Below, piece after piece: positions 1 through 6,126 of a stretch of DNA of 6,126 nt. The notes beneath the pieces were generated by a model that was not told the DNA's origin, searched no databases, and saw only the letters and a list, made by a program, of their open reading frames with translations. The DNA is from a virus (taxonomy: Duplodnaviria; Heunggongvirae; Uroviricota; Caudoviricetes), in IMG/VR virus record IMGVR_UViG_2703718811_000001, positions 1 to 6,126 of that record. One strand, 5' to 3'. Every line of letters starts with the position of its first letter. The stretch's first letter is position 1. The translations under genes were made by a program, and so were the position numbers.

Positions 1-104
1 GCAGAAGCAGAAAAAGCTTATTATGCTTCCATCGGAAACAATGATCTGGCAGCCTGAGTTCACAGATAAAACTCTCTCCAGGAAAATCGGGGCGGTTCAA
101 ACTG
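1..104. repeat. Left copy of a 104-bp terminal inverted repeat; pairs with 6020-6123 (102/104 identical, mismatches at 73 and 100)
   Basis: The reverse complement of 6064-6123 equals 1-60 exactly. Alignment continues to position 104, then diverges. The repeat carries the last 14 codons and 3' flank of the outward-facing ORF at 60-335. Confidence 0.85.
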
Positions 105-335
105 CTCAGCGGCTTTTTCCACCCACGGCCTGATATTGCTGTACGGCGGGTTATTCCAGATTGCACCGTGGCTTATCCACTCAGAATTTAGCGCGTCGTC
201 GGCCTCAGTTAACCAGTGAGCGCACAGAGCATTTTTGTCGCTCGCTGCCGAATCCAGCCAGAATCCAAACTCAATACGCTCCTGTTCGGCAAAGTTACCT
301 CTGCCGAAGTTGAGTATTTTTGCTGTATTTGTCAT
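60..335 (-). CDS. Truncated DNA N6-adenine methyltransferase-like protein (phage Dam family N-terminal part, 91 aa); C-terminal 14 aa come from the terminal repeat
   Basis: ORF with SD AGGAG 6 nt upstream of the ATG at 333-335. The protein contains EFGFWLDSAAS, NALC and WNNPPYS (an NPPY catalytic motif), typical of small phage N6-adenine methyltransferases. It stops at about 91 aa, roughly half the length I recall for such enzymes, directly after entering the repeat. Confidence 0.5.
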   Translation of the reverse strand: MTNTAKILNFGRGNFAEQERIEFGFWLDSAASDKNALCAHWLTEADDALNSEWISHGAIWNNPPYSNIRPWVEKAAEQFEPPRFSWREFYL

Positions 336-338
336 AAT
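310..338 (+). promoter_or_regulatory. pO-like promoter for oop RNA (-35 TTGAGT 310-315, -10 CATAAT 333-338, 17-bp spacer)
   Basis: Sigma70-like hexamers sit at the correct distance upstream of the oop-like transcript start near 346. Confidence 0.45.
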
Positions 339-345
339 GACTCCT

Positions 346-421
346 GTGGATTGATCCAGTAATTCCCTCAGAATTGCATATCAATTTGCTTAGAGTCCCC
401 GGCGGCCACCGGGGATTTTTT
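346..421 (+). ncRNA. oop: OOP-like antisense RNA overlapping the 3' end of cII, ending in an intrinsic terminator (stem 397-402/409-414, T-run 416-421)
   Basis: The sequence GTGGATTGATCCAGTAAT...CCCCGGCGGCCACCGGGGATTTTTT closely resembles lambda oop RNA as recalled (GUUGAUAGAUCCAGUAAU...GCCGCCGGGCGUUUUUU). It lies antisense to the cII 3' end and finishes with a GC stem followed by a T-run. Confidence 0.7.
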
Positions 422-664
422 CTTTGTGATTCCATCAAGCGCATACTTAAAAGCCCTACTAATCGGACTGATGTCTGATGCCATTCCGAAAGCACACAAG
501 ACCGAAGCAATAAATCTCCAGTCCGTTCTGCTTATCTTCGATTCATGACAGCCAATCATCTTTGCCAGACCGCGCTGGGTAAGCGTTGACAGGTTGATGA
601 GTAAATCAGTTTCAGCGCGATCAATTTCTCGCTGTGATAGTTTGCTGTAACTTGTTTGTTCCAT
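368..664 (-). CDS. cII: cII-like transcriptional activator (98 aa), diverged from lambda CII
   Basis: Position matches lambda (downstream of cro and nutR). The C-terminus KKKSPVAAGDSKQIDMQF resembles lambda CII KKRPAATERSEQIQMEF, and a central SKISR helix-turn-helix-like segment matches lambda SQISR. Length is 98 aa against 97 in lambda. Confidence 0.85.
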   Translation of the reverse strand: MEQTSYSKLSQREIDRAETDLLINLSTLTQRGLAKMIGCHESKISRTDWRFIASVLCAFGMASDISPISRAFKYALDGITKKKSPVAAGDSKQIDMQF

Positions 665-674
665 TTCTTAAGAT
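642..674 (+). promoter_or_regulatory. pRE-like promoter: CII-binding direct repeat TTGC-N6-TTGT (642-655) inside the first cII codons, putative -10 TAAGAT (669-674)
   Basis: The TTGC(N6)TTGC-type repeat overlaps the 5' end of cII on the opposite strand, as in lambda pRE. It would drive antisense-cro and cI transcription. Confidence 0.45.
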
Positions 675-749
675 TTCCAATAGTGAATAGCTAGTTGAAA
701 GGTATGCGTGGAAACGCATATGGCCTTAGTTGGTCAGATATATTGGGAC

Positions 750-795
750 TCGCTTTGTCAGCGACGTAGGACGAATGTCCATTGTGAAAAGAGCG
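750..795 (-). promoter_or_regulatory. nutR: boxA-like CGCTCTTTT (787-795) and boxB hairpin TCGCTGACAAAGCGA (750-764)
   Basis: On the minus strand, between the cro stop and cII, lies CGCTCTTTT followed by a 5-bp stem and GACAA loop. The boxB matches the P22-type GCGCUGACAAAGCGC rather than lambda GCCCUGAAAAAGGGC. The 22-nt boxA-boxB spacer is longer than in lambda. Confidence 0.6.
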
Positions 796-802
796 GTGTT
801 AC

Positions 803-1003
803 TTATGCAGTTGTTTTTTTGTTACTTGGGAAGGGCTTTATTTCTTCCGCATAAACGCTTCCATCAGCGTTTATAGTTAAAAAAATCTTTCGGCCTGCAT
901 GAATGGCCTTGTTAATCGCGCTTTGATATACGCCGAGATCTTTAGCCGTCTTGGTTTGCCCAAAGCGTATTGCATAATCTTTCAGGGTTATGCGTTGTTC
1001 CAT
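803..1003 (-). CDS. cro: Cro repressor (66 aa), near-identical to lambda Cro
   Basis: [66 protein letters not shown] differs from lambda Cro as recalled at two positions (M12I, V55I). SD AAGGAGG precedes the start. Confidence 0.97.
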
Positions 1004-1026
1004 ACAACCTCCTTAGTACAGGCAAT

Positions 1027-1055
1027 CATTATCACCGCTAGAGGTATAATAGTCA
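1027..1055 (-). promoter_or_regulatory. PR promoter (-35 TTGACT, -10 GATAAT on the minus strand) driving cro-cII
   Basis: The reverse complement of 1027-1055 reads TTGACTATTATACCTCTAGCGGTGATAAT, matching lambda PR architecture. Confidence 0.85.
1030..1046. promoter_or_regulatory. Operator OR1 (TATCACCGCTAGAGGTA), one substitution from lambda OR1
   Basis: 17-bp CI/Cro operator; lambda OR1 as recalled is TATCACCGCCAGAGGTA, so position 10 is C to T here. Confidence 0.85.
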
Positions 1056-1070
1056 ACACGCACGGTGTTA
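1054..1070. promoter_or_regulatory. Operator OR2 (CAACACGCACGGTGTTA), identical to lambda OR2
   Basis: 17-bp operator, reverse complement TAACACCGTGCGTGTTG. Confidence 0.9.
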
Positions 1071-1097
1071 GATATTTATCCCTTGCGGTGATAGATT
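1069..1097 (+). promoter_or_regulatory. PRM promoter (-35 TAGATA 1069-1074, -10 TAGATT 1092-1097); leaderless cI mRNA
   Basis: Hexamers match lambda PRM with 17-bp spacing. The cI ATG at 1104 lies 7 nt after the -10, consistent with a leaderless transcript. Confidence 0.85.
1077..1093. promoter_or_regulatory. Operator OR3 (TATCCCTTGCGGTGATA), identical to lambda OR3
   Basis: 17-bp operator, reverse complement TATCACCGCAAGGGATA. Confidence 0.9.
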
Positions 1098-1100
1098 TAA

Positions 1101-1817
<717 letters not shown>

Positions 1818-1826
1818 GGAGGATAG

Positions 1827-2168
1827 ATGGCGTTCACTGACCTTGAATATCAAGCGGTCAAAAAAGAAGTTCACCAATTCATTGAAAGCATAAGGCCGCC
1901 TGAACATATCCGCAATGAACTGGATATTGTTTATAGCATCAATGACCAAACGATAGATATCGGCGAACAGCGCCCCGTGTGGCAGGGCAACCCAGGTGAA
2001 ACAAACATCCTGCCATCAGCAAGAATCAAGTACATACGTTCTCTGGATAGATGGAAAATCTATTGGATGCGGAAGGATATGAAATGGCATCAGTACAGTA
2101 CTGAACTTTCGCTGACTGATGCGCTTGAGCTTGTGCGTGCTGACCCGGATTGCTGCTTCTTCGGATGA
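1827..2168 (+). CDS. Hypothetical protein (113 aa), first gene of the cluster in the rex position
   Basis: SD GAGGAGG lies 4 nt upstream of the ATG, 9 nt after the cI stop, so it is co-transcribed with cI from PRM/pRE. No recognisable motif. It is not RexA (279 aa in lambda). Confidence 0.7.
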   Translation: MAFTDLEYQAVKKEVHQFIESIRPPEHIRNELDIVYSINDQTIDIGEQRPVWQGNPGETNILPSARIKYIRSLDRWKIYWMRKDMKWHQYSTELSLTDALELVRADPDCCFFG

Positions 2169-2169
2169 G

Positions 2170-2188
2170 TGAAGAGACGTTTGGATGA
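2170..2188 (+). repeat. Direct repeat copy 2: duplicate of the cI 3' terminus (TGAAGAGACGTTTGGATGA), would encode EETFG-stop
   Basis: 18/19 identical to 1799-1817, placed immediately after the stop of the 113-aa ORF. Confidence 0.85.
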
Positions 2189-2238
2189 TGGATGGTCGCA
2201 GAGATGCTCGTAGAGCATACAGCGATGCAGGAGAATTT

Positions 2239-2673
2239 ATGGCACTTAATTTAGAAAGAATATCTTTTATAACCCCATTTGATAGCAGCGAAGAACCCAA
2301 CCAACCGACGCTTAATTTTACATGCAATGAATTTCCTGCGCGGCTATCAATTGATTTCAGGGTTGGTATGATCGGGTTGAAACCAAATTCAAGATATAAT
2401 TTGGGTATTATGGTAATCCCCGCGCACCTAATTATAAAAAAAGGTGAGGAAATTCAATTCCCTGACGGCTCTTCGGAATCAGTTTCACTTTTCATCGATA
2501 CGAAAGATAGCCATTTTGAAACAGGGGTTGGCGGACAGGTAATAGTAACATTGAAAGAAATTAGGGTCCCAGCTAAAGGGCTATATAGTGTTATAGGGAT
2601 ATTGCAAGATAATGAAGACCCTAAAAATGAACTTCATAAAAATGAATCATTTTTCACCGTAGAGCTATTATGA
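2239..2673 (+). CDS. Hypothetical soluble protein (144 aa from the ATG at 2239; in-frame alternative start at 2185 gives 162 aa)
   Basis: SD AGGAGA at 2229-2234 precedes the ATG at 2239, whereas the ATGs at 2185/2188 have no SD and lie inside the duplicated cI terminus. No transmembrane segment. The stop overlaps the next gene's start as ATGA at 2670-2673. Confidence 0.65.
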   Translation: MALNLERISFITPFDSSEEPNQPTLNFTCNEFPARLSIDFRVGMIGLKPNSRYNLGIMVIPAHLIIKKGEEIQFPDGSSESVSLFIDTKDSHFETGVGGQVIVTLKEIRVPAKGLYSVIGILQDNEDPKNELHKNESFFTVELL

Positions 2674-3290
2674 GTGACGACAGTAATTTAAATAATCATG
2701 GAAAGCAAGACACCAACATATCTGAAAGCCGGAGGTTGAAGGTTGTTGGCGGTTCCGATTTTGAGGCTGAATTTGATAATTCTCCCACCAAGGTGCAAAA
2801 TAATTACATAAAACCGCCACAAACGGAGGAAGAAGTGGGAACGATCAGCAGAGAGGAACTTGATGCTCGCTTAGCTGCTAATAAAGCAGAGATGGAGTCT
2901 ATTGCTTCTTCCATTAGGGCTGACATGGCTCTATCTCGTGAAAGCGTTAATGTCCAATTTGCATCACTTAATGCAGCCATAAGCTCTCTATCGTCCAAGA
3001 TCGATGGAAAGATGGATAGCGCTGCTGGCGATATAAAAGCAATTAATGGGAGATTCGAAGGAATTCAAGGACAAATAACAGGGGTTAATACCGCAATTAG
3101 TGGTGTTCAGTCGGGTATTTCTATACGATTAGCCATTTTTAGTGTCATTATCGCTGTAATAGTTGCTATTCCCGGGCTGGTATCAGCTTTAAAGTCAGAC
3201 CACGCACCTTTGCAACAGCCTTCCACTTTGCAAGCGCCGCCACAAAATACCCAGCCAACAGACAACAAAAAAATCACTCCCCAGCATTAA
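2670..3290 (+). CDS. Tail-anchored membrane protein (206 aa): polar N-terminus, long coiled-coil-like region, one C-terminal transmembrane helix, Pro/Gln-rich tail
   Basis: Translationally coupled to the upstream gene. Heptad-like Ala/Ser/Ile/Leu-rich region (ELDARLAANKAEMESIASSIRADMALSRE...), a 21-residue hydrophobic stretch LAIFSVIIAVIVAIPGLVSAL near the C-terminus, then APLQQPSTLQAPPQNTQPTDNKK. It is not RexB (four transmembrane segments in lambda). Confidence 0.75.
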   Translation: MSDDSNLNNHGKQDTNISESRRLKVVGGSDFEAEFDNSPTKVQNNYIKPPQTEEEVGTISREELDARLAANKAEMESIASSIRADMALSRESVNVQFASLNAAISSLSSKIDGKMDSAAGDIKAINGRFEGIQGQITGVNTAISGVQSGISIRLAIFSVIIAVIVAIPGLVSALKSDHAPLQQPSTLQAPPQNTQPTDNKKITPQH

Positions 3291-3298
3291 CGCATTAA

Positions 3299-3320
3299 CC
3301 CGGCCTCAGCGCCGGGTTTT
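3299..3320 (+). terminator. Intrinsic terminator ending the cI-cluster operon (stem CCCGGC/GCCGGG, T-run)
   Basis: CCCGGCCTCAGCGCCGGGTTTT sits 9 nt after the stop at 3290. Confidence 0.7.
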
Positions 3321-3475
3321 CTTTGCCTCACGTTCGCCCACCTAAAAACACATAACCAATTGTATTTATTTGAAAATAAATAGATACAACTCACTAAACA
3401 TCGCAATTCTGATCTCTCGCCCTCCAAAGCAATACCCCAATTCAAAAAATAAATTCATATAAAAAACATACAGAT

Positions 3476-3492
3476 AACCATCTGCGGTGATG
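3476..3492. promoter_or_regulatory. Operator OL3 (reverse complement CATCACCGCAGATGGTT; one mismatch to lambda OL3)
   Basis: 17-bp operator adjacent to OL2 and OL1. The flanking AT-rich sequence 3380-3475 matches the lambda pL upstream region as recalled. Confidence 0.8.
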
Positions 3493-3495
3493 AAT

Positions 3496-3512
3496 TATCT
3501 CTAGCGGTGTTG
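3496..3512. promoter_or_regulatory. Operator OL2 (TATCTCTAGCGGTGTTG; lambda has TATCTCTGGCGGTGTTG)
   Basis: 17-bp operator overlapping the pL -35, with one G to A substitution. Confidence 0.85.
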
Positions 3513-3538
3513 ACATAAATACCACTGGCGGTGATACT
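3510..3538 (+). promoter_or_regulatory. pL promoter (-35 TTGACA 3510-3515, -10 GATACT 3533-3538)
   Basis: Matches lambda pL TTGACATAAATACCACTGGCGGTGATACT with 17-bp spacing. Confidence 0.9.
3520..3536. promoter_or_regulatory. Operator OL1 (TACCACTGGCGGTGATA), identical to lambda OL1
   Basis: 17-bp operator between the pL -35 and -10. Confidence 0.9.
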
Positions 3539-3606
3539 AAACACATCAGCAGGACGCACTACTCACCAGGGCGGTGAATATACAACGATTCGAATATGAA
3601 TCTACG

Positions 3607-3621
3607 GCGCTGACAAAGCGC
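3607..3621 (+). promoter_or_regulatory. nutL boxB hairpin (GCGCTGACAAAGCGC), P22 type; no canonical boxA seen upstream
   Basis: 5-bp GC stem with GACAA loop in the pL leader about 130 nt before N, the same boxB type as nutR at 750-764. Lambda identity ends near 3558, just after the pL start. Confidence 0.65.
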
Positions 3622-3749
3622 AATAACCAAAGTGAACTTTGGGGTGAATGCAGAAGCTAACCTTCTCGGCGGAGGCGCTTTGCAATGATTACGCGACCGG
3701 AGTTAGTCGCCCGGCTGTATTCACCACCAAAGTTCATCAGGAGGTCTAT

Positions 3750-4133
3750 ATGACACGCAGAACTCAGTTCAAAGGCAATTCACGTTCTCGTCGTCGTGAG
3801 CGTTTAAAGGCAAAGGCATTAGCTAACGGCGTACTGGCCCGCGAAGAAGCAATAAGTTCAGAAGTATTACACCGCCCTACTCTAAGCAGAGCGCAGATTC
3901 AGGCTAAAGGTACTCACGAAACGCCTGAGCGCATAGAAGACGCTAAGCCAATTAAGTTCATGGCACAGGACGTGATCTGGCAACAGAAAGAATACAGACG
4001 CAATCTGGAGCGAGCGGCCATTGTGTACGCGAATGAGTTTGGACATAAGCAACCAGAAACTGGTGTATGTCTTCCAAACGTAGCCATTTACGCGGCAGGC
4101 TACCGGAAATCAAAACAACTGACGGCGAGGTGA
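3750..4133 (+). CDS. N: N-type transcription antiterminator (127 aa) with arginine-rich motif, P22 gene 24 / Stx-phage class
   Basis: Strong SD AGGAGG 5 nt before the ATG at 3750. N-terminal arginine-rich motif GNSRSRRRERLKAKA resembles the P22 N motif GNAKTRRHERRRKLA, and the C-terminus LPNVAIYAAGYRKSKQLTAR resembles the P22 N C-terminus as recalled. It is the first gene after pL/nutL, and its boxB type matches. Confidence 0.85.
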   Translation: MTRRTQFKGNSRSRRRERLKAKALANGVLAREEAISSEVLHRPTLSRAQIQAKGTHETPERIEDAKPIKFMAQDVIWQQKEYRRNLERAAIVYANEFGHKQPETGVCLPNVAIYAAGYRKSKQLTAR

Positions 4134-4183
4134 CTTGTGTTGGTCGCCAGAAAATGAAATTAGGCAGCAAACCACTTATTTGA
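4121..4183 (+). pseudogene. Out-of-frame relic of a lambda-type N C-terminus (DGEVTCVGRQKMKLGSKPLI-stop) overlapping the N stop
   Basis: The -1 frame across the N stop encodes GE-VTCVGRQKMKLGSKPLI, which resembles the lambda N C-terminus GERGITCSGRQKIKGKSIPLI as recalled, and ends at TGA 4181-4183. Confidence 0.4.
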
Positions 4184-4191
4184 GGTGAGAT

Positions 4192-4662
4192 ATGACAAAA
4201 TCATGGAGCGTACCTTTTCCTGAATCAGAAACTGAACATGATGGAATGCCTGTTTTCTGGAGATTCCAGGCGACAGTTGAAGAAGATGGGATAAAAATAT
4301 TCGCACTTCAATATATAGCTTTTCATCAGACAGAGCATTATGCATGGTTGGTTCCTGCGCATTGGATTGTTAATTTTAAACCAGCACCAAATCAGTGGTT
4401 ACAGGAATGGAAACAAAGGAGAAATAGATATGCAATTAAGAAAGTAGCAAAAAATGCAGAAAGATCTTTTGCATTCCCAACGAAGAAACTTGCTATTGAA
4501 AGTTTATTGCGCCGGAAGAAATACCATTTAATGAGAATCAAACAAGATTTGGCTGTTGTATCAACTCTTGTTGATGGGATGAAGAATATTGATACATCAA
4601 CACCAGATATTGAATATAACTTTGGACACAACCAAGAAACAGAAAACTGGGTATTTTATTAG
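4192..4662 (+). CDS. Hypothetical protein (156 aa) in the position of ral/sieB
   Basis: SD GAGGTGAG precedes the ATG at 4192. Basic, Trp-rich, no transmembrane segment. No resemblance to lambda Ral (66 aa). Confidence 0.7.
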   Translation: MTKSWSVPFPESETEHDGMPVFWRFQATVEEDGIKIFALQYIAFHQTEHYAWLVPAHWIVNFKPAPNQWLQEWKQRRNRYAIKKVAKNAERSFAFPTKKLAIESLLRRKKYHLMRIKQDLAVVSTLVDGMKNIDTSTPDIEYNFGHNQETENWVFY

Positions 4663-4676
4663 TACGAATAAGCACT

Positions 4677-4704
4677 GTGTATTCATTCCAACGAGTGAAT
4701 ACAC
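4677..4704 (+). other. Hairpin (9-bp stem GTGTATTCA/TGAATACAC, 10-nt loop) in the intergenic region; possible RNA processing or attenuation structure
   Basis: Perfect inverted repeat seen in the sequence, with no T-run after it. Confidence 0.4.
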
Positions 4705-4766
4705 GGAGCAATGTCGCTCGTAACTAAACAGGAGCCGACTTGTTCTGATTGTTGGAAATCTTCTTT

Positions 4767-4792
4767 GCCCTCCAATGTGAGGGCGATTTTTT
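4767..4792 (+). terminator. Intrinsic terminator (stem GCCCTC/GAGGGC, T-run 4787-4792), tL2-like position
   Basis: GCCCTCCAATGTGAGGGCGATTTTTT between the 156-aa ORF and the next gene. Read-through would require N antitermination. Confidence 0.65.
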
Positions 4793-4812
4793 ATCTATGA
4801 GGATATGAATAG

Positions 4813-5181
4813 ATGTCAAACATCAAAAAATACATCATTGATTACGACTGGAAAGCATCAATAGAAATTGAAATCGACCATGACCTAATGACAGAGGAAA
4901 AACTTCACCAGATTAATAATTTCTGGTCAGACTCTGAATACCGACTCAATAAACACGGCGCTGTATTAAATGCTGTATTAATCATGCTGGCGCAACATGC
5001 TCTGCTTATAGCAATTTCAAAAGACCTAAATGCATATGGTGTTGTTTGTGAGTTCGACTGGAATGATGGAAATGGTCAGGAAGGATGGCCTCCAATGGAT
5101 GGTAGCGAAGGAATAAGAATTACCGATATCGATACATCAGGAATATTTGATTCAGATGATATGACTATCAAGGCCGACTAA
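4813..5181 (+). CDS. Hypothetical acidic protein (122 aa), Ea10-like by position and size
   Basis: It lies between N and cIII, where lambda has ea10, which I recall as also 122 codons. The sequence itself is not recognised. SD GAGGA lies upstream. Confidence 0.6.
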   Translation: MSNIKKYIIDYDWKASIEIEIDHDLMTEEKLHQINNFWSDSEYRLNKHGAVLNAVLIMLAQHALLIAISKDLNAYGVVCEFDWNDGNGQEGWPPMDGSEGIRITDIDTSGIFDSDDMTIKAD

Positions 5182-5256
5182 GTGCGGCTTTACCGCATAC
5201 CAATAATGTTTCACTCGAGGCGTTTTCGTTATGCAATCAAATATAAGGAGTTACCC

Positions 5257-5391
5257 ATGATGCACTTTCAGCTCGCGGGTAGCGGCGTCATGTCCGCTTT
5301 CTACCCGCACGAATCTGAATTATCACGACGAGTTAAACAATTAATCAGAGCAGCAAAGAAACAACTGGAGGCGTTATGCGCAATGAAATAG
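5257..5391 (+). CDS. cIII: cIII-like protein (44 aa; FtsH inhibitor family)
   Basis: SD AAGGAG 6 nt before the ATG at 5257. The segment QLAGSGVMSAFYPHESELSRRVKQLIRAAKKQLEAL resembles the lambda CIII core AIAGWPVAGCPSESLLERITRKLRDGWKRLIDIL. The long ORF-track start at 5182 lacks an SD. Confidence 0.7.
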   Translation: MMHFQLAGSGVMSAFYPHESELSRRVKQLIRAAKKQLEALCAMK

Positions 5392-5528
5392 CCATCAATC
5401 ACCAGATGCTTCGTGCGGCACAAAACAAAGCAGTAATAGCTCGATTTATTGGTGATTCCAAAATGTGGCTTGAAGCAAATAAAGCGATGAAATCAGCTAT
5501 CAACCTTCCGTGGTATCGCAGGAAATGA
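5376..5528 (+). CDS. kil: Kil-like small protein (50 aa), overlapping the cIII 3' end
   Basis: SD GGAGG precedes the ATG at 5376. It overlaps the cIII-like gene by 16 bp, as kil overlaps cIII in lambda. The motif ARFIGDSKMW resembles lambda Kil (ATFIGDEKMF) as recalled from memory. It falls below the ORF-track length cutoff. Confidence 0.5.
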   Translation: MRNEIAINHQMLRAAQNKAVIARFIGDSKMWLEANKAMKSAINLPWYRRK

Positions 5529-5632
5529 GTTTTACAGATAACTGGTCAGACGAAGAATTCATTCGTCAGATGAAAGAAATGCTCAATCAGCACAAAGAAC
5601 AGGAGAAAGATGATGATTCTGACTCTGAATGA
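5525..5632 (+). CDS. Possible small acidic ORF (35 aa), ATGA-coupled to the kil-like gene
   Basis: ATG at 5525-5527 overlaps the upstream TGA at 5526-5528. No strong SD, and it overlaps the next gene by 23 bp. Confidence 0.25.
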   Translation: MSFTDNWSDEEFIRQMKEMLNQHKEQEKDDDSDSE

Positions 5633-5921
5633 TAAGCGTGAAATATCGCAAATCATCGCAAGTTTTACCGATGATGATTACGAACGAATCAACAGTGAAG
5701 TTGATCGCCTCTGCAAACGTTGCGACCCAATAAGCGAAATGCTTCGCTCATATAAACCAGATGAACACACTAAGGACGCTATCGACTGGCTGGAAGATGA
5801 TGACTGTAACTATCAGGAAAAAGCCGCTGAATGGTTCTGGGATGCAATAACCGAAAGAGTTAAGGCTGAATATGCCTTCGCAATATTCAAACGCAGACAT
5901 ATTTATGGAGAAGCTGCATGA
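5610..5921 (+). CDS. Hypothetical acidic protein (103 aa)
   Basis: SD AGGAG at 5601-5605 precedes the ATG at 5610. It occupies the region where lambda has gam, but the sequence is unrelated to Gam as recalled. Confidence 0.65.
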   Translation: MMILTLNDKREISQIIASFTDDDYERINSEVDRLCKRCDPISEMLRSYKPDEHTKDAIDWLEDDDCNYQEKAAEWFWDAITERVKAEYAFAIFKRRHIYGEAA

Positions 5922-6064
5922 GCAATATCGTTGAATTCGTTAAACAGCAGGAGCAGTTATTCTGCGGAGCATTGACTGAACAGACGGTGACATGGGCTAA
6001 GGAAAGCCAGTTTGCAATTCAGTATGAACCGCCCCGATTTTCCTGGAGAGTGTTTTATCTGTGA
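5918..6064 (+). CDS. Short ORF (48 aa) whose last 14 codons and 3' flank form the right terminal inverted repeat
   Basis: ATG overlaps the upstream stop (ATGA at 5918-5921), with SD GGAG 7 nt upstream. It ends YEPPRFSWRVFYL, nearly the same as the C-terminus of the ORF at 60-335 (FEPPRFSWREFYL). Confidence 0.4.
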   Translation: MSNIVEFVKQQEQLFCGALTEQTVTWAKESQFAIQYEPPRFSWRVFYL

Positions 6065-6123
6065 ACTCAGGCTGCCAGATCATTGTTTCCGATGGAAGCA
6101 TAATAAGCTTTTTCTGCTTCTGC
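6020..6123. repeat. Right copy of the 104-bp terminal inverted repeat (pairs with 1-104)
   Basis: Reverse-complement identity with 1-104 at 102/104 positions. Confidence 0.85.
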
Positions 6124-6126
6124 CGG

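Follow-up and report, generated by a model that had tools for sequence, protein, structure and literature searches.

The interval between the cI and N genes of lambdoid prophages is the slot in which RexAB, Stk and BstA were found, and its cargo, which every lysogen expresses, often determines which phages can infect a strain. Published work describes this cI-N region as a hotspot of mosaic diversity that holds rexAB and bstA (PMC8585504, citing Degnan 2007). Furthermore, the Stk kinase of phage 933W aborts infection by HK97, and Hex of phage 434 is encoded on the PRM transcript (PMC3564112). Here we describe the contents of this slot in a 6,126-nucleotide stretch of viral DNA (class Caudoviricetes; positions 1 to 6,126 of IMG/VR virus record IMGVR_UViG_2703718811_000001; henceforth the window), which is the immunity region of a lambdoid prophage of lambda immunity. 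The slot contains three open reading frames (ORFs), namely ORF1, ORF2 and ORF3, and we consider it an even call that they represent two independently mobile accessory (moron) cassettes ended by one terminator, with the second cassette, comprising ORF2 and ORF3, being a phage-exclusion module.

The initial annotation of the window, made from the letters of the sequence, had placed three genes at 1827–2168, 2239–2673 and 2670–3290, between cI and a terminator, in the slot that rexA and rexB occupy in lambda. This anatomy is confirmed, including the ATGA overlap of ORF2 and ORF3 at 2670–2673. The genes follow a lambda-type cI and precede both a strong terminator (3297–3326) and the pL promoter (3510–3538), and the proposed absence of rexAB is upheld in that searches of Pfam-A and PADLOC with ORF1–3 return neither RexA nor RexB at E<=1. 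The terminator, first reported at 3299–3320, has its hairpin stem at 3297–3318 followed by the U-tract UUUUCUUU (-17 kcal/mol, z = -3.2; 0 of 200 shuffles fold as well), and between the start of cI and 3297 the + strand holds no terminator-like site. The cargo would be co-transcribed with cI by read-through from the cI promoters in the lysogen. Homologues of the cargo genes are found across several Enterobacterales genera, with a ratio of nonsynonymous to synonymous substitution rates (dN/dS) of 0.08–0.12 where dS is measurable (elsewhere dS is saturated and dN is 0.12–0.54); by this comparison of sequences the three cargo genes are real and under purifying selection. The features of the slot, with lengths in amino acids (aa) or nucleotides (nt), are:

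1104–1817, + strand: lambda-type cI repressor, 237 aa, at the head of the cargo-carrying operon (Peptidase_S24 E=7e-29, HTH_3 E=3e-11)
1799–1817, + strand: left copy of a 19-nt direct repeat, the cI 3' end, TGAAGAGACGTTTGGGTGA (repeat family D5; three-way alignment with 933W and HK542)
1818–2168, + strand: cassette 1, a GGAGG ribosome-binding site (1818–1822) and ORF1 (1827–2168, 113 aa)
2170–2188, + strand: right-hand repeat copy, TGAAGAGACGTTTGGATGA, left over from a cI terminus and marking the junction of cassettes 1 and 2 (repeat family D5; three-way alignment)
2229–2673, + strand: first gene (gene A) of cassette 2, an AGGAG ribosome-binding site (2229–2233) and ORF2 (2239–2673, 144 aa), predicted soluble all-beta (Ig-like sandwich) partner of class A
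2670–3290, + strand: ORF3, 206 aa, start overlapping the ORF2 stop by ATGA
2670–2843, + strand: N-terminal head of ORF3, aa 1–58, varying between partner classes and holding the class-A motif LKVVGGSDFEAEFDNS (similarity confined to class-A loci)
2844–3125, + strand: conserved coiled-coil stalk of ORF3, aa 59–152, SREEL..NKAE.. and then I-x-G heptads (invariant alignment columns; occupancy of heptad positions a and d)
3129–3191, + strand: single transmembrane segment of ORF3, about aa 154–174 (KD19 hydrophobicity maximum 2.71 at aa 156–174)
3192–3290, + strand: P/Q-rich C-terminal tail of ORF3, about 30 aa, predicted to be periplasmic, and stop codon (alignment)
3297–3326, + strand: intrinsic terminator closing the cI operon, conserved right border of the cargo slot (folding, shuffles)

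A search of the regions upstream of ORF3 homologues showed that, wherever these are readable, there is an ORF of 70 aa or more whose end lies at the homologue or a short way upstream of it (55 of 55 loci). The pairing of a soluble protein with a single-pass membrane protein, noticed initially in the window, is thus borne out as a conserved functional unit. The pair lies directly behind a repressor gene in E. coli (repressors of the lambda type, the 933W type and a 215-aa S24 type), Citrobacter, Cedecea, Salmonella, Leclercia, Yersinia, Pectobacterium, C. koseri and several IMG/VR contigs. At least six types of repressor precede it, comprising S24-type cI proteins that differ in length as well as small RacR-like HTH repressors, and by our count the pair is repressor-adjacent in about 16 of 20 distinct contexts; the scan of genome contigs gave 2 loci only. 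The partners encoded by the upstream gene fall into the following classes:

Class A, 143–144 aa: ORF2-like beta-sandwich
Class B1, 92–97 aa: no similarity to the other classes
Class B2, 98–101 aa: no similarity to the other classes
Class C, 112–135 aa: two CxxC pairs

BLASTP and hidden Markov model (HMM) comparisons recovered no similarity between partners of different classes, those of B1, B2 and C being not detectably related to ORF2. The heads of the ORF3 homologues follow the same division: all class-A pairs of heads are similar (E 1e-3 to 5e-18), and none of the pairs drawn from different classes reaches significance. The cores show 37–85% identity across all partner classes, with the window ORF3 core being 69% identical to that of a class-C locus, 66% to that of a class-B1 locus and 43% to that of a Citrobacter class-A locus. 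ORF2 of the window is a class-A partner and its ORF3 head matches class-A loci only; the ATGA overlap of the partner stop with the ORF3 start is seen in both class A and class C. As the heads match within a class and the cores are conserved across classes, partner and head appear to move as one unit onto a conserved stalk, transmembrane segment and tail. This co-variation is the strongest evidence for ORF2 and ORF3 working together, and suggests that ORF2 binds the head of ORF3. The comparative evidence, which points to a modular, repressor-adjacent two-protein family with swappable heads, is the new element of this analysis. We tentatively take the step, at somewhat less than even confidence, of regarding ORF2/ORF3 as a modular family of enterobacterial (Enterobacterales) prophage exclusion systems that has not been described before, in which a conserved tail-anchored coiled-coil effector bears interchangeable cytoplasmic heads, each with its own small sensor protein (at least four unrelated classes).

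Two further observations concern the partner genes. The 149-aa partner from Salmonella and the 172-aa partner from Xenorhabdus were set aside as ORF2 relatives, since they have only a C-terminal motif in common with it and the relationship is unproven. In an IMG/VR prophage (locus L054, 1292–3980) a predicted membrane protein of 160 aa is encoded between cI and a class-B2 partner/ORF3 pair, in the same manner as ORF1 in the window.

The division of the region into two cassettes is apparent from megablast searches, in which 1827–2207 resembles 933W and 2170–3320 is 99% identical to phages HK542 and HK244 only. HK542 has the ORF2–ORF3 pair directly behind cI, and 933W has L0084 followed by L0083, the Stk kinase gene and L0081. 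In the window and in 933W alike, ORF1 lies between two copies, 95% identical to each other, of the 19 nt that end a lambda-type cI, and in HK542 the sequence of the right-hand repeat is the genuine cI end. These relationships suggest that the present arrangement arose by recombination within cI-end relics. At least 27 complete E. coli genomes have cI followed by ORF2 and ORF3 without ORF1. Given its flanking repeats, its varied downstream cargo and the ORF2–ORF3 loci that lack it, ORF1 appears to be a self-contained unit. The mosaic junctions, with cI-end relics as cassette borders, offer a concrete picture of how cargo moves between phages of different immunity.

The initial annotation had recognized none of the three proteins, which does not hold for ORF1. 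This protein matches the Pfam family DUF3024 (PF11225; 108.7 bits against a gathering cut-off of 24.9, profile positions 2–112 of 112), the PADLOC model PDC-S43 over its full length (E=7.2e-42, profile positions 1–115 of 115) and phrog_3467, and 1827–2207 is 99% identical in DNA to 933W L0084 and about 90 other Shiga toxin (Stx) phage records (megablast). It is predicted to adopt a soluble alpha-beta5-alpha fold (AF2, pLDDT 86), and its KD19 maximum of 0.63 indicates no membrane-type segment. DUF3024 is also the first gene of other cargo sets: in Erwinia it is followed by a set of a 153-aa protein, a Pkinase protein and a 47-aa protein, in Kluyvera, behind a repressor, by a set of a 135-aa protein, an MqsA-like protein and a 127-aa protein, and in Yersinia ruckeri by a P63C protein. 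Four other downstream cargos were found in all. ORF1 probably works on its own. As DUF3024 lies directly behind cI in most 933W-type Stx phages, the function of ORF1 would bear on the biology of Stx prophages.

RefSeq/PGAP calls ORF2 as a protein of 162 aa from 2185. The 144-aa call is preferable because in 8 of 8 homologues from other genera the first residue corresponds to the Met at 2239, and the 18 codons added in the longer form are left over from a cI terminus. ORF2 has a KD19 maximum of 1.01 and lacks a hydrophobic segment, in agreement with its earlier description as soluble; it corresponds to phrog_5893 and has 12 homologue clusters only. ORF3, which had been described as a tail-anchored coiled-coil membrane protein, indeed has one hydrophobic segment (aa 156–174), a 30-aa tail, and heptads with a/d periodicity that run into the segment. 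It matches phrog_5820 (E=1e-76), and the architecture with one transmembrane segment in the C-terminal half is found in 118 of 143 family members, with a median tail of 31 aa; in the ORF3 alignment the number of heptads varies by whole 7-residue units. A word-indexed search recovered 28 homologue clusters, and an exhaustive profile search 289 at E<=1e-3, 100 at E<=1e-10 and 30 at E<=1e-30; the size of the family is uncertain beyond about 100 clusters, as the weakest matches are generic coiled coils such as YadA stalks. The earlier failure to recognize ORF2 and ORF3 stands to the extent that neither shows homology to RexAB or any validated defence system in Pfam or PADLOC, but both had already been deposited as hypothetical proteins of HK542 and HK244, to which they are 99% identical.

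Several weak matches were examined and discarded. These include LmuB in PADLOC (E=0.016), which is coiled-coil noise, and chance-level matches of ORF1–3 to PDB chains (AvrPto, E=0.07; RuvBL2, E=0.2; a tail fibre and SmhB, E>0.4). The NCBIfam search returned nothing above cut-off, and its matches of ORF3 to SlaB and MakE/MakA fall far under it, reflecting coiled-coil and hydrophobic composition. The Pfam matches of ORF3 to Baculo_PEP_C (PF04513; 19.6 bits against a cut-off of 38, heptad region only) and CCDC90-like (PF07798; 12.6 bits against 33.5, with individually checked relatives also below) are likewise under threshold. No toxin, antitoxin or DNA-binding domain was detected in ORF2 or ORF3 with Pfam, NCBIfam or PADLOC. 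The literature yielded nothing useful on L0084, HK24404, or DUF1640 in connection with phage, the DefensePredictor supplements do not list the cargo accessions, and a 'bully phage' preprint, which deals with Cro, has no bearing on the cargo.

These features allow a mechanism to be proposed for the pair. ORF3 would be a tail-anchored inner-membrane protein with its N-terminus inside, exposing about 150 residues (head and coiled coil) to the cytoplasm and a tail of about 30 aa to the periplasm. Its transmembrane helix is predicted to be continuous with the heptads, and an oligomer that bundles the transmembrane helices is plausible, given that the heptads resemble those of trimeric stalks (weak matches to a tail needle, a YadA stalk and Baculo_PEP_C); ORF3 is probably oligomeric. 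ORF2, bound to the ORF3 head, would be the specificity or sensor part, and the conserved stalk, transmembrane segment and tail the effector at the membrane. Exclusion of superinfecting phage would be its most likely output, either through triggered membrane damage, i.e. abortive infection with a RexAB-like logic, or through interference at the inner membrane. Since all variable parts are predicted to be cytoplasmic, intracellular sensing is favored over a purely periplasmic block of DNA entry. The sensor plus membrane effector suggested by the initial annotation fits a module in which exchangeable cytoplasmic heads sit on a conserved membrane stalk, but a defence role for the pair remains conjectural. 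The occurrence of ORF2/ORF3 at a hotspot behind many repressor types, the purifying selection, and the swapping of a specificity part on a conserved membrane part are hallmarks of conflict systems. If the proposal is true, prophages could retarget one membrane effector to different invaders by exchanging cassettes at a repressor-adjacent hotspot; if active, the pair would bring the tail-anchored coiled coil, as a new effector architecture, into the repertoire of abortive infection and exclusion, and would provide a tractable model of sensor exchange.

Other explanations of the locus need to be weighed against this proposal. The initial annotation had treated the three genes as a single cluster, and, read literally, ORF1, ORF2 and ORF3 would constitute one three-component system. 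The trio does recur unchanged, behind two cI types: it is present in 18 complete E. coli genomes, six of them with a lambda-type cI and 12 with another cI, and in 11 of 17 near-identical IMG/VR loci, the remaining 6 being without ORF1; one IMG/VR locus of the trio layout (L022) has a 933W-type cI. However, the copies of the trio are nearly identical (99–100% in DNA), and its recurrence therefore points to a single recent recombinant. ORF1 has flanking repeats of its own and other cargo partners, being found without the pair in about 90 Stx phage records and beside stk, MqsA-like or P63C genes, and ORF2 and ORF3 occur without ORF1 in the genomes noted above, in HK542 and HK244, and in every non-E. 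coli locus examined. A single cluster is thus not upheld, and we regard the three-component system as very improbable. A better contender, although still an unlikely one, is that ORF3, with ORF2 as a helper, is a constitutive superinfection exclusion factor that blocks DNA entry at the inner membrane like P22 SieA, T4 Imm and lactococcal Sie2009. Many known repressor-adjacent membrane proteins of prophages are such factors, ORF3 is predicted to be an inner-membrane protein in a lysogen-expressed operon beside the repressor, and the short extracytoplasmic tail motif QPIIIQVP is conserved in most members of its family. Yet about 150 of the 206 residues of ORF3, and all class-specific parts (head and partner), are predicted to be cytoplasmic, which is a better fit to intracellular sensing, and in the window allele the tail motif is degenerate even though the gene is under purifying selection.

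The pair might instead serve the prophage itself, either as a toxin-antitoxin-like addiction module or as a modulator of the lysis-lysogeny switch, for which RexA and 434 Hex are precedents. The tight co-variation of partner and head resembles that of cognate toxin/antitoxin pairs, and it is possible that the window is a replication-defective remnant in which the cI operon and its cargo persist. Placement in the cI operon also matches 434 Hex, which shields the repressor from RecA (PMC3564112), and RexA, which, according to a preprint, biases toward lytic growth (bioRxiv 10.1101/2021.04.19.439022). Against this, the pair is also present in tail-region moron sites far from any repressor, the six or more unrelated types of repressor that precede it argue against repressor-specific regulation, and no DNA-binding or known toxin domain was detected in it; we accordingly hold this explanation to be less probable than superinfection exclusion. 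The slimmest chance of all is given to lysogenic conversion that has nothing to do with phage, for instance in tolerance of envelope stress or in interaction with the host. Lambda-family prophages do express non-defence morons in lysogens, e.g. bor and lom, and ORF3 resembles tail-anchored coiled-coil membrane proteins of unknown role, with sub-threshold CCDC90-like matches in 18 of 61 of its relatives. Nevertheless, the family is seen in prophage and phage contexts only, mostly in a slot that elsewhere holds known exclusion genes, and rapid modular swapping of heads is typical of conflict systems.

A number of observations weigh against the proposal of two cassettes with an exclusion module in the second. 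ORF2 and ORF3 match no PADLOC model, and PDC-S43, the model matched by ORF1, is a computational candidate and not a validated defence system. Our search of the literature recovered no experimental work on the proteins of ORF1–3, no paper on DUF3024, and PDC-S43 only as a PADLOC listing. The putative interaction of ORF2 with ORF3 is drawn from co-variation alone. The family tail motif has degenerated to QPSTLQAP in the window allele. Finally, a minority of copies of the pair reside in tail-region moron sites rather than beside a repressor, these being next to DinI in Yersinia, behind the tape-measure gene in Xenorhabdus, and beside a Big_2 tail gene.

The suggestion of the initial annotation that the slot is a hotspot for prophage cargo is borne out both by the published cI-N hotspot and by the contents of the slot in other strains. 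Other E. coli strains have the same cI 3' end and the same terminator, whose 33–34 nt also close slots with other cargo, bracketing different genes. In Nissle 1917 (locus L063, 1758–3064) the slot holds a 185-aa protein and a DUF1828 protein that match PADLOC PDC-M24A/B, in another E. coli strain (L064, 1711–2622) a P63C-domain protein whose gene overlaps the cI stop, and in a third (L065, 1785–2165) a 126-aa hypothetical protein. In the 933W set, Stk matches the PADLOC models PD-T4-6 and mad6. A second prophage cargo site, next to dinI and near the tail genes, contains a DUF3024–Stk set in Erwinia (L017, 3071–6130), and a site of the same type contains an ORF3-family pair in Yersinia (L007, 5016–7935). 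As both also occupy this dinI/tail-gene site, the two cassettes appear to share two different hotspots.

The remainder of the window conforms to the lambda plan. Its cI is nearly identical to that of lambda, and the operator repeats and the nutR/nutL pair are placed as in lambda; an Rfam scan of the window found no RNA family. The principal features outside the slot are:

368–664, - strand: cII
803–1003, - strand: cro
1030–1093: oR operators (repeat families I9/D4)
3510–3538, + strand: pL promoter and oL operators, start of the N operon, outside the cargo (TTGACA-17-GATACT, 10 of 12 matches; operator repeat families I2/D4)
3648–4133, + strand: N (N_peptide Pfam match)

The longest ORF for N, which is the form chosen by PGAP, is 161 aa; since the arginine-rich motif MTRRTQFKGNSRSRRRERLKAK begins at Met35, the true N protein is probably about 127 aa. 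N is followed in the pL operon by two genes of unknown function, one for a 156-aa protein (4192–4662, phrog_1636), the equivalent of 933W L0079, and one for a DUF2528 protein (4813–5181), whose 933W counterpart is annotated as 'ssb/Ea10-like'. Positions 101–6025 are found as an exact copy inside intact prophages of E. coli OkiPb01678 and OkiPb01712. The ends of the window, 1–104 and 6020–6123, are inverted repeats with 98% complementarity, and the final ~100 nt match the end of an IS3-family element present in more than 4000 E. coli genomes. This suggests that the window is a prophage piece between inverted insertion sequence (IS) ends, which would make it either a remnant with flanking IS elements or a contig that was interrupted at IS copies. 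Two reading frames are cut short by these ends, namely a phage N6-adenine methyltransferase gene (60–335, - strand) and the ORF preceding recT (5918–6064). Relative to the otherwise identical OkiPb01678 prophage (L003, 3253–6082), about 2.8 kb is missing at window positions 335–368, from the methyltransferase start to the cII stop, with the loss of O, P, ren, a DUF7301 gene and ninB. Unless this reflects an assembly join, the absence of these genes would render the element replication-defective.

The cargo may finally be compared with described systems. ORF1 matches DUF3024 and PDC-S43 over the full length of both models, and both are labels without an assigned function. The CCDC90-like family (PF07798, formerly DUF1640), XhlA and ElaB/YqjD share with ORF3 the sequence of cytoplasmic head, coiled-coil stalk and C-terminal transmembrane segment; no XhlA or DUF883 match was found for ORF3, and the CCDC90-like matches of its relatives span only the coiled coil and transmembrane segment, i.e. 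the C-terminal part of PF07798, and may reflect composition instead of homology. Gp30/gp31 of mycobacteriophage Sbash, whose host belongs to a different phylum, combine a soluble with a membrane protein; they are expressed from the prophage, are encoded close to the immunity cassette, and have been proposed to act like RexAB. Lambda RexA/RexB, which excludes T4 rII and other phages by depolarizing the membrane, has the same slot, after cI and before the terminator and pL, the same predicted reading from the cI promoters, and the same combination of a soluble and an inner-membrane protein. However, RexA is a 279-aa DNA-binding protein and RexB has four transmembrane segments, whereas the window pair consists of a predicted 144-aa Ig-like sandwich and a single-pass tail-anchored coiled coil with one hydrophobic segment only, and ORF1–3 belong to neither Rex family by the searches described above. 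The gene order also differs, the small soluble gene of the window being translationally coupled to the membrane gene. The cI-operon cargo of 933W shares with the window ORF1 (L0084), which in both is first after cI, with the same ribosome-binding site and both flanking cI-end relics, but its L0083, Stk kinase (PD-T4-6-like) and L0081 are absent from the window, where the HK542 pair takes their place. HK542 (the HK542_035 pair) and HK244 (HK24404/05) have this pair under the same lambda immunity and before the same terminator, with the difference that there it lies directly after cI, whereas in the window the DUF3024 cassette is inserted between.

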